NCBI GenBank assembly: GCA_965216465.1
Contig: CBDCFW010000001.1
Span: 1 to 64,000, forward strand
Length of the DNA: 64,000 nucleotides
Reading direction: 5' to 3'
From: Bacteroidia bacterium
Lineage (GTDB): Bacteria > Bacteroidota > Bacteroidia > NS11-12g > UBA9320
Shown one piece after another: positions 1 to 10,403 of this stretch. Numbering within the stretch: position 1 is the first letter of the stretch; every line of letters starts with the position of its first letter. The notes under the pieces were generated by a model that was given only the letters and a program-made list of their open reading frames with translations, searched no databases and was not told the origin of the DNA. Made by a program: the position numbers and the translations under genes.

Positions 1-312
1 AAAAATTGCCTCAACTCTTTTTAGTTGCTCTTCAACTCTGTCATTTAGGTTATCAGGTGTCATTAAAACACTTACCACATCAGTTGAGAAAACCTTCTTG
101 GCTCTATTGAAAAACGATTTCCAATCGTTTACTAGAGTTTGTTTTTTGTTGTCTCGGTTTCTTTTCCACTCGTCAATAACATTTTCAGGGAGTAATATTT
201 TGACATGGCCGTTTTCAATCCAGTATTCTAATGAATCAATAAAATTATTTTCCTCTCCGCTCTCTTTAAGAGAGTTTAGCCAAATGTCGCTATCCAAAGT
301 GAGGTAGATCAT
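1..312 (-). CDS. PIN-like domain protein (DUF4935-like), runs off the left edge of the window
   Basis: Not in the ORF track. Manual translation from ATG at 312 is open to position 1: MIYLTLDSDIWLNSLKES...HVKILLPENVIDEWKRNR. The hhhD(S/T)xhW start and LLPExVxxEW motif resemble PIN-fold proteins. Confidence 0.65.
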   Translation of the reverse strand, partial: MIYLTLDSDIWLNSLKESGEENNFIDSLEYWIENGHVKILLPENVIDEWKRNRDNKKQTLVNDWKSFFNRAKKVFSTDVVSVLMTPDNLNDRVEEQLKRVEAIF

Positions 313-340
313 CAATTCTATTTCTCGGTTATTTTTTCAG

Positions 341-399
341 CATGACCGCCAACAATTGTATACGAGGACAAAAGTTCCTCATACACAACTTATGTGCTT
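341..399 (-). mobile_element. attC-like imperfect palindrome upstream of the PIN-like gene
   Basis: Arms ttgtatacgagga (356-368) and tcctcatacacaa (376-388) pair imperfectly. On the minus strand the hairpin is followed by GTTGGCGGT, about 40 nt before the ATG. Confidence 0.35.
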
Positions 400-619
400 A
401 TTCAAATTTATCGCTGAAAGCCCGTAATTCTAAGGATTTTTTCCTAAGCTTGGAAATATTCCGCAATTGCGTTTATCCAGCTAACCTCAAAAAGTTCTGT
501 TCAAAACTGACCTAGTTCAGGTGCCACAGAGAAATTAACCCACTGGAGAGCGATTTTTTTAGAACATAAATCGCCAAATAATCAATCATTTAATTTTTCA
601 AAAAGTTCGACATAAGGAT

Positions 620-631
620 TGTCGAGGCTAC
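620..631 (+). mobile_element. possible duplicated tRNA 3' end (att-site remnant)
   Basis: TGTCGAGGCTAC resembles a tRNA T-stem/acceptor 3' end and directly precedes an orphan terminator with no upstream plus-strand gene. Confidence 0.3.
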
Positions 632-633
632 TG

Positions 634-664
634 AAAAGGCTTCCAATTTTGGAGGCCTTTTTTA
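634..664 (+). terminator. rho-independent terminator (possibly bidirectional)
   Basis: aaaaggcttcca-attt-tggaggcctttt followed by a T-run. Confidence 0.75.
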
Positions 665-847
665 TTTCTCTATAAAGTGTTGTTTTTCAGTAAAGTGCAC
701 AGGCCTTAACTGAAGTGAAAAGTTCGACCTGAGGTTCGATTCTGCTCGTGGCTTTTTCACTTTTTAGACATAACATTTTGTAAATCTGAAAGTTAGATGA
801 GTTCGGAATTTACAGAAATAAAATCAGAACCTCTGAATATTCGCATC

Positions 848-1642: not shown

Positions 1643-2050
1643 AATCTGTTGTTTCACATCTACCAGTTTGTAGTCTAGACACTTTATGGCTCCTGTTGAA
1701 ACTTGAAGTAGACCTATCATCCAGATGGGAATTTATATTCGAAGTCAATCAGCTTGAAAGTTAAAGGTTGGGTCCAAACATTTGTGGGAATAGATTATCA
1801 CTCTTTAGACCTAATTAATCTAAAGAGTGTGAGGTCAGCAAGTAATTAGTGCTGATATCGAAAGGCATGAGTCTTAGGCATTATTTGAAAGATAACAAAT
1901 ATGCTGAACATGTTTTTGGTCACTGATACCAGTTTGGTATTGAGTGAATGTAGGTTTAATTCCACCTGAAGAAAAGAATTGTGAGGCATAGTATGCCTCG
2001 AAAAGAATCATTTAATAAAAGACCAGAGCGAATAGTTCTGGTCTTTTTTT
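1643..2050 (+). ncRNA. candidate large structured non-coding RNA (~405 nt), family unassigned
   Basis: No credible ORF. Helices 1643-1658/1783-1796, 1711-1716/1769-1774, 1799-1809/1819-1829, 1834-1840/1850-1856, 1861-1869/1909-1917, 1920-1931/1935-1947, 1951-1955/1964-1968 and 1982-1989/1993-2000. Bounded by a promoter motif and a terminator. Confidence 0.65.
2017..2050. terminator. bidirectional rho-independent terminator
   Basis: aaaagaccagagc-gaata-gttctggtcttttttt; T7 on the + strand, shorter T-run on the - strand. Confidence 0.85.
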
Positions 2051-2074
2051 GCTTTATAGGATAGCTACTGAAGG

Positions 2075-4063
2075 TCAATTATCATCATTCCACAGATAGT
2101 CTGCTATCTCCATAAGTAGAACGCTGTTATCAAAGATGCCAGCACCCATAAAATCATCTGGAATGCAAGAATCTACGAATCTTGAGAATTCGATGTTATA
2201 AGAATTGATGTGCTGTCCATTGTATTCAAAATGCCAAGGAAGATTCCAAGGTAACGTAGACACATAATAATTGCGTGCAATGTTCAATGTATCATTGTTT
2301 TGATTGACAATCAAAATTTTGAACCAATTGCTAGTTGTACTCCAAACTCCTTCGCGTTGCTCAAAAATTGCTGATATGATGTGATCATCCAAACTGTCAA
2401 GCTTTGAGGGAATGGCGTAATAAAAGTCTTTATCCACCTTCTTTTTTGAACCGTAGCTATAATCTTTTTGCTTTAAGCGTTTGTCAACCTTTGACAAGTA
2501 CTTCTCTATATCTTCAGCTGTAATTTTGAAATCTTTTAGTACAGGTCTTCTTGATGGATTTGAATTCACAATTTTCAGGGCATCATTCAATTGAGCATCT
2601 TCTATACTATTCTTATAGCTACTTGTTTCTTTGTCGTAAAAATCACTGCCCACAACGGCACTTGCAGCAAAGTTGGAATCACTAGTTCTTTTGTAGGCAA
2701 TATCATCGCTGGAGCTATGAAAGCAGCCTCTACTTCCGGAGCTAATTACAAACAAGCTAACCGGAGACTTCAAGAATGTTTGCAAGGGAGATTCTGGGTA
2801 ATATTTTGTGGCTTCGTGAGTTCTCAACGAATAGGTGTAGTTTTTGGTTCCATTCCACAGTATAGCTAGACTATCATCGACTAATTTGAAATCTGAAACA
2901 CTGAAATTGAGGGCATTTTCTCGATACCAGCCTGAGTCATCATCCTGGAGGTAAATTTGGTCTTTGTTTATTCCCCATTTCAGGTTTAATCCCTGTTTCA
3001 CTAATCTGGGTTTAGAAATCTTTTTGTCATGGGTATAGGGTATGGAGCGTGTCAACCCTCCTTGGTTGACTTTATATACATCATATCCTCTTATCACAAC
3101 AAATAAAGAACCATTCACAGCTTTAATATCAATAGGATAGTTCACCAAACTGTAGTTGGTAAACTGAGAATAATTACTTGGGGTAAAAAATGATAAAATT
3201 TTTAAATCACTCGTAACTGCGAACAGCTGGTTGGTCGTTTTATCGAAATCAAAATCAAAAAGATTGCTTGCAAAAGGTTTCCAATCGATATTGTCTTTAT
3301 CGGAATAAAAAATTTGACCATTCTGACTTACAACCAAGTACTTTTTCCAAATTGCAACTCGGGATATTCTATTGTCAACATATCCCCTTGTTTCATCAGG
3401 CTTGTACTTATTCTGATCTAGTGGAGTTTCTATATGCTTTACGCTTTTCCAATTGTCATCAGTAGTTATTATTTCATTTTCGTCTGAACCAGCAATGCCA
3501 ATCTCTGGGTTCTTCATGAATAAGCTATAGGTTCTGTCGCAAGATTTATAGGGCAGCTTAATAGTAGTCCAGCTCTTTCCATAGTCGCTGGAGTAATACA
3601 TTTTCTTGGATAGTCCTCCCATCCAAGCATTCCCTTCACTGTCAACGGTTACTGTATAAATCCAAGAGTTCCCTCCATAGTCTAGAAGCTCCCAACTCCT
3701 TCCTCCGTCGGTTGTTCTGAAATAGCCATTTTTTTTGTATTCTTTTTGACTATGAGAAATGTAACCTGTCATAATCGCTGTATCCTTATTGAAGAATGAA
3801 ATTCTATCCAAATTCGGATGATCTAATCCTGAGTCGTCTTCTGATTCATATAACGGAGTGCCATAATGCCAATTCGAATCAATGTGATTTGTATAATAAG
3901 TCTTACCCATAGCCGTTGTCAGCCAAATCCGCTCATCTGGAGAAACTGAGATATCTGAAACGCGCCCTCGTATACCAAGCTCTGCCCTCCTGTCTTTTTG
4001 TTGTCCATAAGCATCTACTACAAGAAGAATTGCCAATATGCAGACAACTCTTTTAAGTTTCAT
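2075..4063 (-). CDS. secreted BNR/Asp-box beta-propeller protein (Ycf48-like)
   Basis: Asp-boxes RTTDGGRSW, SSDYGKSW and TTDDNWKS. Signal peptide from ATG 4063 (MKLKRVVCILAILLVVDAYG). Confidence 0.8.
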   Translation of the reverse strand: MKLKRVVCILAILLVVDAYGQQKDRRAELGIRGRVSDISVSPDERIWLTTAMGKTYYTNHIDSNWHYGTPLYESEDDSGLDHPNLDRISFFNKDTAIMTGYISHSQKEYKKNGYFRTTDGGRSWELLDYGGNSWIYTVTVDSEGNAWMGGLSKKMYYSSDYGKSWTTIKLPYKSCDRTYSLFMKNPEIGIAGSDENEIITTDDNWKSVKHIETPLDQNKYKPDETRGYVDNRISRVAIWKKYLVVSQNGQIFYSDKDNIDWKPFASNLFDFDFDKTTNQLFAVTSDLKILSFFTPSNYSQFTNYSLVNYPIDIKAVNGSLFVVIRGYDVYKVNQGGLTRSIPYTHDKKISKPRLVKQGLNLKWGINKDQIYLQDDDSGWYRENALNFSVSDFKLVDDSLAILWNGTKNYTYSLRTHEATKYYPESPLQTFLKSPVSLFVISSGSRGCFHSSSDDIAYKRTSDSNFAASAVVGSDFYDKETSSYKNSIEDAQLNDALKIVNSNPSRRPVLKDFKITAEDIEKYLSKVDKRLKQKDYSYGSKKKVDKDFYYAIPSKLDSLDDHIISAIFEQREGVWSTTSNWFKILIVNQNNDTLNIARNYYVSTLPWNLPWHFEYNGQHINSYNIEFSRFVDSCIPDDFMGAGIFDNSVLLMEIADYLWNDDN

Positions 4064-4145
4064 AAGATTTATTGTTCGAAGGGCTTTCATACTTTCATAG
4101 TGAGAACGAATTTTTAGATACAATAGTCTGTGGCTTAGATTCACT

Positions 4146-4853
4146 TCAATAATTTGCCGATCGCTCAACCGTATCAATATTGTAATTGAATTCAACCAAT
4201 CCACAGTTCAGTTCTTTTACGGGGCCCGTTGCTTCAAACGCAAACTTTTCTAACGCCTTAATCGATATCTCATAAAGGTAATTTGAGTTGGTTGTGCTTT
4301 TTGTAGATTTCTTGGTATAATCATCTAGAATTAATCCGTTGGAGTCTAAGCAAACCTCTAAAAACACGATTCCTTGATCATCAGAAGAATTGCCGGGTCT
4401 CAGTCGACGGATATCTTTAAAATTGTCGAAGTGTGTAACCGCTGGATAAGAAACATAAGCAAATTTTGAAGACGAAGTATCTCGTCTTCTTGAATATCCT
4501 TCACCGCTTCTATCTGGCCTATTCATGCTTCTCATGTTTTTCATCTCTTCATAAAACAATAGAGATTCTTGCGGTTTAACTTCAACAGGCTCCTCTTTAA
4601 CAACTTGAATATCTCGATTTTCTGGTTGATTTATTGGGGATGGCTTTGGCGTTAAAACCTTTGACTCGGGCATATCCGCTATAGGTTCTGGGGCTGCAGT
4701 ATCTGATTGATTAGGAGATTGAATCTCAATATCAGAAATAGTATCGATTTGTGCAGTGGTTTCAGCCTCATGTTCATCCTCAGATGATTTATTCTGAGAA
4801 GTTTCCGAACAGGCAAAAAAGAATAAAAGCAAGATGGGTAGCCATTTAGTCAT
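4146..4853 (-). CDS. lipoprotein with Pro-rich linker and TonB C-terminal-like domain
   Basis: Lipobox FFAC, P/E-rich linker, C-terminal GIVFLEVCLDSNG...STTN...FAFE...GLVEFNY resembling Bacteroidota TonB_C. Confidence 0.6.
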   Translation of the reverse strand: MTKWLPILLLFFFACSETSQNKSSEDEHEAETTAQIDTISDIEIQSPNQSDTAAPEPIADMPESKVLTPKPSPINQPENRDIQVVKEEPVEVKPQESLLFYEEMKNMRSMNRPDRSGEGYSRRRDTSSSKFAYVSYPAVTHFDNFKDIRRLRPGNSSDDQGIVFLEVCLDSNGLILDDYTKKSTKSTTNSNYLYEISIKALEKFAFEATGPVKELNCGLVEFNYNIDTVERSANY

Positions 4854-10000: not shown

Positions 10001-10403
10001 ATGCAATACTCCTAAATGTCAAATCGATTGTTTTTGCATTATCTAGCAGCTGTGTATCTATATCTGTGTAGTTGTAATGCTTGGGTTCACCAAGCATCGT
10101 TTGTTGATATGCTTTTCCGAGATATTCCGGCTCATCAATTTTGAACGCTTGAGGTGGATGTGTAGCTGGTTTTAGCACTGGATCGATATGGAACAAGCGT
10201 CTTGTATCATAACCGTTCCCAAGTGTGTCTAAAACGATAAACATGCTGTCAATCTCTTGCTCACTAAAGGTATCAGATAGATTTTCTTGTATAGCGTGAA
10301 CTATGGACTCTGAACTTGTGTCATTCGACAAATTACATGCTGCAAGGGCAATGGAAATTGTAAAAAATCCAATTGCAATTTGGGGTAATTTGAAGGAGTT
10401 CAC
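7008..10403 (-). CDS. membrane-bound class III adenylate cyclase with beta-propeller and Y_Y_Y sensor region
   Basis: Reg_prop-like repeats, QYRYKL (Y_Y_Y), ILPPWY plus TM helix, coiled coil, cyclase motifs FTDFVKFT, EKIKTIGDAYM and YDIWGDTVNTASRMES. Confidence 0.92.
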   Translation of the reverse strand: MNSFKLPQIAIGFFTISIALAACNLSNDTSSESIVHAIQENLSDTFSEQEIDSMFIVLDTLGNGYDTRRLFHIDPVLKPATHPPQAFKIDEPEYLGKAYQQTMLGEPKHYNYTDIDTQLLDNAKTIDLTFRSIALQATLTQRVQAKSVETNSPFRVRMYDVDNGLVDNKVSGMTQDKNGVLWYTYEAIKSFDGTYNKLFVPETGMLTSSMDPITDPHGNIWFVKGWDKRLMRFDGNFLNQSSLDGVNLIGTNNDGNLLLQKDSSLFRLDGNRVVEIGKAPWLNEGVRSASTASDGTVYIVGKGHVGIVKNQKVITAHLHNLGVLNSVGVDVDDRVWIASDKGLILFEEENYLAYDTSSGLSSLKPREILCDSKGKVWICNGDDMNVIDENIVFTLPIESYYNNSFYSMTIRNMFEDQNGQVWVSTIDDGFQVIAEGLISTINLKEKLIDQTDLLEVNGKLWIANKEGLYIYNPETEEIWKHNQVLDHFGWKDNVRLALKDGDVYISTGTQIGRLDGDSLYMYGKPQGLEMIISDLEVDRHNKLWIGGPSHLYSFDGERFSDEIPHIKQPVNTLSLDKQGNVMVTHGDFGIMRRLDNGWTSLVSEVYGFPWTAAMSTDSIFLNGSWSNGFYATKGEKYFRLDIKNGLSSNYIKVLYTDSFGNAWLGGQSLQVIEGANLNRVLSGKDDQLEILEFSKLDGLNADYFASHSGEAYLNGVLYLQNGDAIIKVRPNELLSKSENIPIISWVEVDDEIQSFASDGKSKKAKWDSADHFTNVPTNLKLFPTASRIRFGFSMVDLRSAHRTQYRYKLRGSNQHWSKTKEQPVADFTALRHGKYVLEVQCRKGGFKWSDSRLYQFEILPPWYFSKTAYTFYVLFGVIIVILIIRWRTAKLKQDKERLERIVDDRTAEVRKEKQKSDELLLNILPEEIAHELKEKGESQARGYDLVSVIFTDFVKFTEISSKLDPKEVVERINSCFKAFDQIMEKHGIEKIKTIGDAYMAASGLPIEQPNVAQQAVIAALEMQAFIEERSLNFEKEGKESFKMRVGVHTGPVVAGIVGVKKFQYDIWGDTVNTASRMESSGEVGKVNISQETYELIKDDALFEFEHRGKISAKGKGEVDMYFVSNKIADDQ

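Follow-up and report, generated by a model that had tools for sequence, protein, structure and literature searches.

Genomic neighborhood of the cluster

The 64-kb window, the whole stretch of DNA analyzed here, contains only three gaps longer than 300 nt. One of them, at positions 1320 to 2074 (755 nt), is ORF-free with stops in all six frames, and is flanked by accessory genes that converge on it, close to a hot spot of integration at tRNA-Met. Its upstream neighbor is a small plus-strand gene (888-1319) with an N-terminal hydrophobic segment and no Pfam match. The downstream neighbor is a convergent 709-amino-acid gene on the minus strand (2075-4204) with weak matches of the BNR/sortilin type. 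With the queries used, the flanking genes had no counterpart in 60 relatives, and neither gene had a relative in viral contigs. Two relatives of the 709-amino-acid gene (53 to 54%) were found in metagenome contigs, both of which end inside the gene. A full-length relative at 37% was present in genome G044, where the next gene follows after 80 nt and there is no hairpin cluster. The G044 locus has five terminator-like sites, none of which lies in the 80-nt gap after the stop.

A tRNA-Met(CAT) gene is located about 5 kb upstream of the cluster (L121 10014-10088). Partial copies of its 3' end occur about 100 nt after the tRNA gene (L121 about 10175-10200) and at window 734-747, the latter being a 14-nt exact match, and these copies look like integration scars at a tRNA hot spot. 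About 1 kb separates the cluster itself from the tRNA-fragment repeat. The ORFs scanned around the cluster included no recombinase, transposase, relaxase, or replication gene, and the genome contains neither a terminal repeat nor a second copy of the element.

Several other features were observed near the start of the contig. Contig C3 ends in 204 nt (382119-382322) that overlap window 1-204 without a mismatch, and C3 therefore joins C1. A PIN_12-domain ORF on the minus strand (window 1-315, starting at 315) continues into C3 (L121 11230-15000); it would total about 1,290 amino acids and has no other Pfam match. Just upstream of its start, window 281-440 shows strong excess structure on the minus strand (z of -3.4 and -4.4 in 120-nt windows) and could be a structured 5' leader. 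Window 629-741 is non-coding, with a terminator followed by about 80 nt, and shares 88% identity with a genome of the same genus (G005, C209:418-529). The similarity stops at the right edge of this segment, and nothing beyond it has a counterpart there. A conserved small RNA or 3' end could lie here, or the segment could mark the border of the variable region. The gene at 888-1319 carries a frameshift near 1124 in an A-run. In a metagenome contig of the same strain, an additional A at 1124 would leave the reading frame open, so that the shift would reflect an error in the assembly or else a strain-level or phase difference.

Predicted structure of the hairpin cluster

The right-hand part of the gap is occupied by a compact cluster of about 260 nt (1793-2051), made up of six hairpins, with hairpins 1 and 2 coming first, and a strong intrinsic terminator. 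The features of the gap are as follows.

1320-1792, no strand assigned: upstream ORF-free stretch without excess structure (z between +2.5 and -1.9)
1754-1784, plus strand: promoter-like site, TTG, 20 nt, AACATTTG, with one mismatch to TAnnTTTG
1793-1796 with 2006-2009, plus strand: closing helix, predicted 4 bp, enclosing the six hairpins as one multibranch domain
1799-1829, plus strand: hairpin 1, 11-bp perfect stem, 9-nt loop CCUAAUUAA (1810-1818)
1830-1860 (core 1834-1856), plus strand: hairpin 2, core stem 1834-1840/1850-1856, 9-nt loop AGUAAUUAG (1841-1849)
1861-1917, plus strand: hairpin 3, long interrupted stem of 9+2+5+5 pairs including two internal G-U pairs, loop AAAGAUAA
1920-1947, plus strand: hairpin 4, 12 pairs with one bulge, loop GUU
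1951-1968, plus strand: hairpin 5, 5 pairs, 8-nt loop UUAAUUCC with UAAUU (DNA form TTAATTCC)
1982-2000, plus strand: hairpin 6, 8 pairs, loop AGU
2017-2054, plus strand: intrinsic terminator, 13-pair stem (2017-2047) followed by a T-run

The plus strand of 1793-2055 (263 nt) folds to -85.1 kcal/mol, compared to -54.1 +/- 4.4 kcal/mol for 200 dinucleotide shuffles (z of -7.1), and none of the 200 shuffles folded as well. The minus-strand fold of the cluster is equally strong (z of -7.7) because most of the stems are perfect palindromes, and perfect-palindrome hairpins would look alike as DNA-level features. In sliding-window folding, the excess structure was limited to about 1760-2080, with 1320-1760 at background. 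A decayed gene may underlie the upstream part of the gap (1320-1790). A large ornate RNA of about 750 nt, which had been considered for the locus, is ruled out by the restriction to 1760-2080. The cluster contains six perfect hairpins in 260 nt, and a density of at least six was found at only 48 of the 9,915 hairpin positions in the genome.

Hairpins 1 to 5 are not accompanied by T-runs. On the minus strand, hairpin 6 is followed by a T-rich tract and has a terminator-like score (1999-1983), and the terminator stem at 2017-2047 also reads, more weakly, as a terminator for the convergent minus-strand gene. Two further observations were made within the gap. A 19-codon ORF (ATG to TGA, 1867-1926, plus strand) lies inside hairpin 3 and is probably due to chance. 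A 17-nt direct repeat (1654-1670 and 1920-1936) is 82% identical between its copies, which have the common core TACCAGTTTG and each top a small hairpin.

Strand and transcription signals

On the plus strand, 10 of the 87 predicted pairs are G-U, and three of these lie inside the helices of hairpin 3 and the terminator, where the minus strand would have A-C mismatches instead. When the minus strand is folded, loop 1 shrinks to 5 nt and pairs are lost from hairpin 3 and the terminator. The plus strand also has the longer T-run behind the terminator. The internal G-U pairs, the T-run, and loop 1 lean toward the plus strand as the RNA strand in the predicted folds.

We take TTG/TAnnTTTG to be the Bacteroidota promoter consensus. 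The promoter-like site at 1754-1784 would put the RNA start near 1790, just before the closing helix. However, this site is not significant by itself, as 871 nt of plus strand contain nine sites with one mismatch. An exact TAnnTTTG occurs just once on that strand of the gap (1632-1639), and it has no TTG upstream. A search of sequencing runs for this DNA gave no RNA run, and the same-strain contigs from the one DNA run listed leave 1590-2142 uncovered. From sequence features of this kind, we infer that the cluster is transcribed and which strand is used.

Hairpins 1 and 2 and their loops

An earlier note on this DNA had described neighboring stems capped by loops at 1810-1818 and 1841-1849, and both stems were recovered when the sequence was read directly and the hairpins were re-derived. 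Hairpin 1 is formed by CACTCTTTAGA (1799-1809) and TCTAAAGAGTG (1819-1829), with 11 Watson-Crick pairs and the DNA loop CCTAATTAA. The core of hairpin 2 is formed by GTCAGCA (1834-1840) and TGCTGAT (1850-1856), with six Watson-Crick pairs, a closing G-U pair, and the DNA loop AGTAATTAG. In the minimum free energy fold, hairpin 2 gains three outer pairs (1830-1832/1858-1860) and then abuts hairpin 1. Partition-function folds in four sequence contexts gave mean pair probabilities of 0.98 to 0.99 for hairpin 1 and 0.92 to 0.95 for hairpin 2, and every base of the two loops had a probability of at least 0.92 of being unpaired.

The complementarity that the note reported is present in the sequence: CTAATTA (1811-1817) and TAATTAG (1843-1849) are exact reverse complements, and each loop has the palindrome TAATTA. 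The palindrome occupies positions 3 to 8 of both 9-nt loops, giving a common 2+6+1 register with the layouts CC-UAAUUA-A (loop 1) and AG-UAAUUA-G (loop 2). The flanks of loop 2 are therefore the purines A, G, and G, and those of loop 1 are C, C, and A, with pyrimidines on the 5' side. Six of the seven complementary bases follow from the same palindrome sitting in both loops. The seventh loop-loop pair, C1811:G1849, weighs little because the opposite flank (A1818/G1842) is unpaired.

A third apical loop nearby, that of hairpin 5 (1956-1963), contains TAATT. All three TAATT occurrences in the 263-nt cluster (at 1812, 1843, and 1957) are in apical loops; these motif statistics are post hoc and come from an A+T-rich stretch (35% G+C). 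Genome-wide, TAATT is present in 26 of 1,731 hairpin loops of 8 to 9 nt, likewise a post hoc count. The third loop moves the simplest description from a mutually complementary pair to a single A/U motif displayed on several loops, in an argument that depends on a post hoc count and on a hairpin 5 stem of only five pairs.

Rarity of the pair within the genome

TAATTA occurs 1,543 times in the 3.23-Mb genome, and 12 copies lie inside a loop closed by at least six perfect pairs. Among these 12, only loops 1 and 2, which are 31 nt apart, have the same register. The 9,015 perfect hairpins of the genome form 357 adjacent pairs (gap of at most 12 nt), and loop complementarity of at least 6 nt was found in just one of them, hairpins 1 and 2, with 7 nt; the next best pair reached 5 nt. 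This survey found no further twin hairpin with complementary loops in the genome, and together with the loop-register survey, it ruled out a genome-wide family of TAATTA-loop hairpins. A dispersed repeat of the REP or MITE type was also looked for, and no second copy was detected in the organism's own genome by BLASTN or by the covariance model R1 described below.

Six first-order Markov genomes of equal size contained 273 to 301 adjacent pairs each. None of the six reached 7 nt of loop complementarity, and three reached 6 nt. By extrapolation, roughly 0.1 such hairpin pairs would be expected per genome by chance. The hairpin 1/2 pair is thus unusual for a single genome yet within reach of a scan over very many windows, and given this chance expectation, its context counts for more than the pair by itself.

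Search for relatives

No Rfam family matched at the gathering score anywhere in the 64-kb window (4,227 models, which presumably include guanidine-II, OLE, ROOL, GOLLD, raiA, HEARO, and the Bacteroides sRNAs). At E values up to 10, the regions 300-2200 and 1785-2060 gave only terminator look-alikes and chance matches of at most 30 bits. The best of these weak matches fell on the plus strand and concerned the terminators of leaders and sRNAs, and no Bacteroides sRNA family matched over the hairpins.

BLASTN of the region found no match in any of the 60 relatives, and none in phages and plasmids. Within the class, 97 of 400 genomes gave matches at E values up to 0.1, each of 19 to 58 nt, with a best E value of 0.0013. 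We take these as chance matches because they are short and scattered over the query.

The loops were also searched as a pattern requiring both exact loops 16 to 28 nt apart, in which altered loops would be missed. One genome per species (185,579 species) gave 78 stretches and viral contigs gave 8, with 90 matches. In none of the 90 were both loops closed by at least five pairs, and the best had 5 and 4 or 2 and 5 pairs. One chance match of the loop pattern fell in a Saprospiraceae metagenome-assembled genome (L039/L056, contig CALLAW010000099.1; also L096 and L099), where there is a tandem array with a 279-nt period and further copies on another contig.

The covariance model R1, a single-sequence model of 1793-1950, found only itself in its own genome and had no relative in 150 relatives searched. 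Across 150 genomes of the class, it gave one 69-nt match (E of 0.05, 19 bits). This match was rejected as chance; it resembles hairpin 1 only, agreeing at 19 of 21 core positions, and a second hairpin is absent. By the tests run (Rfam, BLASTN, R1, and the loop pattern), the predicted structured cluster belongs to no known family.

Comparison with known systems

The layout of the HIV-1 DIS loop is in part general background. As described in the accessible part of a published account, it is a 9-nt apical loop with a 6-nt palindrome, two flanking bases on the 5' side, and one on the 3' side (PMC7357161), like the loops of hairpins 1 and 2. However, the DIS palindrome is G/C-rich, whereas that found here is all A-U and does not provide a stable G/C helix. 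The DIS also has one loop per RNA in a viral leader, in contrast to two or three loops here in an element that is not part of a viral leader.

The SL1-SL2 (SL-C/SL-D) elements of the MoMuLV leader are adjacent stem-loops with the same self-complementary loop that pair crosswise (SL1-SL2'/SL2-SL1'), according to the sections available to us of the same source (PMC7357161). By analogy, they would be the nearest architectural parallel to the idea of intermolecular pairing. They differ in having GACG tetraloops with two G-C pairs and stacked adenines and in acting as a packaging signal, whereas the hairpins here have 9-nt loops with an A-U hexamer and lie on a bacterial chromosome.

Guanidine-II (mini-ykkC) riboswitches are bacterial tandem hairpins with two near-identical loops that carry a small palindrome. 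They are listed as palindromic kissing loops in Table 1 of that account, within its accessible part (PMC7357161). In contrast to the present hairpins, they have ACGR tetraloops and lie upstream of the genes they control; here, the loops differ, neither strand has a gene downstream, and Rfam gave no matching family.

OLE, ROOL, and GOLLD RNAs are much larger than about 260 nt. The palindromic bridges of OLE, GOLLD, and ROOL are backed by palindrome-to-palindrome covariation, as far as the available portion of the report describes (bioRxiv 10.1101/2024.12.08.627333). These are conserved families with covariation support and many A-minor contacts, unlike the orphan of about 260 nt described here.

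Among regulatory RNAs, Bacteroides sRNAs of the GibS and FopS type act via single-stranded seeds and bind RbpB in single-stranded regions, according to the accessible text (PMC11697453). The seeds of FopS are in a 5' single strand and not in loops, unlike the motif at this locus. CsrB and RsmZ also differ, as the CsrB motif is GGA and that here is UAAUUA. Bacteroides lack CsrA, as stated in the part of the source available to us (PMC13370968).

Interpretation of the locus

We tentatively favor the interpretation that hairpins 1 and 2 form the 5' end of an orphan structured RNA, about 260 nt long and read from the plus strand, with a repeated A/U palindromic loop motif, which we judge possible, if open to considerable doubt. 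Such an RNA would span about 1793-2051, with six stem-loops and then the strong intrinsic terminator, and would be strain specific. It could be a small RNA driven by a weak promoter of its own, or it could be the folded 3' end of the upstream small gene's transcript. Of its four large apical loops, three would present a single-stranded A/U core (UAAUUA, UAAUUA, and UAAUUC), and these loops may serve as a repeated recognition motif, held on rigid stems, for one partner. The partner might be an RNA with a complementary A/U stretch or a single-strand RNA-binding protein, as in multi-loop regulatory or sponge RNAs, and the complementarity of loops 1 and 2 would be a by-product of the palindromic motif. 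We infer all steps of what the loops would do. In the accessible parts of the literature searched, there was no A/U loop motif bound by Bacteroides RbpB. In favor of this interpretation are the excess structure confined to about 1760-2080, the hairpin density, the plus-strand terminator, the internal G-U pairs, the position of all three TAATT in apical loops, and the stops in all six frames. Several points count against it. The minus strand folds with as strong a z-score, the promoter-like site is not significant, and the motif statistics are post hoc. The locus is also made of variable DNA next to integration scars, a setting in which non-functional remnants are common, and the sequence searches gave no homolog that could point to selection on the stems or loops.

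The earlier note had proposed that the two loops kiss, either between molecules, giving dimers or higher oligomers, or within one molecule. The intermolecular form would consist of closed dimers (loop 1-loop 2', loop 2-loop 1') or open chains. We consider pairing of this kind highly unlikely. Both loops are predicted to be unpaired on stable stems, their complementarity is unique in the genome, and the flanks of loop 2 are purines, as in the DIS, although the 5' flanks of loop 1 are pyrimidines. The calculated energies are weak: the six A-U pairs, plus one C-G in the hetero pair, give -4.1 kcal/mol between loops 1 and 2, and self-pairing yields -2.4 and -2.0 kcal/mol, compared to -13.9 kcal/mol for a G/C palindrome control of the same layout (nearest-neighbor duplex energies). 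A value of -4.1 kcal/mol corresponds to a calculated affinity of about millimolar for a single contact, and two contacts in a closed dimer could reach micromolar affinity. Real kissing complexes are often more stable than nearest-neighbor duplex energies imply. The shared 2+6+1 layout of the DIS and the cross-kissing of adjacent self-complementary stem-loops in the MoMuLV leader, both in the accessible part of PMC7357161, favor pairing, as do the symmetric palindromic kissing loops that bridge chains in OLE, GOLLD, and ROOL according to the available portion of bioRxiv 10.1101/2024.12.08.627333. However, the natural kissing examples contain G/C in the accessible parts of the cited literature. 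An intramolecular kiss between loops 1 and 2 is unlikely on geometric grounds because the stems are 11 and 7 to 10 bp long and a stacked kissing complex would overreach the linker of 0 to 4 nt left by the abutting hairpins. An intermolecular loop-loop contact is physically conceivable. The third loop with the same motif allows loop identity to account for the data without pairing, and it is at least as compatible with one repeated motif as with two loops suited to one another. A more elaborate version has a very slim chance of being correct: a strain-specific small RNA would use a DIS-like module, a rigid stem displaying UAAUUA, two or three times and become self-multivalent via all-A-U kissing loops, forming dimers or open chains as a minimal, recent counterpart of the OLE, ROOL, and GOLLD bridges. 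Short RNAs are able to build large assemblies, according to the part of the report available to us (bioRxiv 10.64898/2026.07.01.735769).

The cluster is placed exactly between convergent genes, with terminator-like hairpins for both strands (2017-2047 in both directions and 1999-1983 on the minus strand) and an equally strong z-score on both, as would be expected if it were a passive 3'-end structure that terminates both convergent transcripts or protects their ends against exonucleases while its loop sequences are idle. We regard this as unlikely, since termination needs far less than six hairpins over 260 nt, hairpins 1 to 5 lack T-runs, and a motif common to three loops of otherwise unique sequence would be left unexplained. 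In G044, moreover, the one full-length homolog of the 709-amino-acid gene examined is followed by an 80-nt gap with no terminator-like site. It is likewise improbable that the element is a non-functional remnant left at the tRNA-Met hot spot by a mobile element that has decayed, or a set of protein-binding or recombination sites acting on double-stranded DNA. The flanking genes that were not found in 60 relatives with the queries used, the tRNA-Met gene about 5 kb upstream with its partial 3'-end copies, the perfect, DNA-like palindromic 11-bp arms, and the lack of detected conservation all fit a remnant or DNA site. However, no mobility or replication gene was found among the ORFs scanned around the cluster, the genome holds neither another copy nor a terminal repeat, about 1 kb separates the element from the tRNA-fragment repeat, and the internal G-U pairs favor a plus-strand RNA. 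Core sites of tyrosine recombinases have a spacer of 6 to 8 bp, which the 9-bp spacer here exceeds. Simple chance, in which an A+T-rich intergenic stretch happens to hold two hairpins with TAATTA loops, we consider decidedly improbable. Loop complementarity of 6 nt did arise in three of the six simulated genomes, TAATTA is common (1,543 copies), and the pair was singled out after the fact in a very large scan. In contrast, 7 nt arose in none of the simulations, and chance would also have to cover the 11-bp stem, the same register, the third motif loop, and the z of about -7 of the context.

Significance

The feature is real and non-random in its own genome. Its value is as yet modest because it is a single copy in one genome. 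Little is known so far about RNA-binding proteins in the Bacteroidota or about how sRNAs act there. If transcribed, the cluster would be an example of a young, lineage-restricted structured RNA in this phylum, and the motif on three loops would offer a concrete handle for a partner pull-down. If the loops self-pair, weak all-A-U palindromes would be able to drive RNA self-association when they are multivalent, and RNA quaternary structure would extend to small orphan RNAs.
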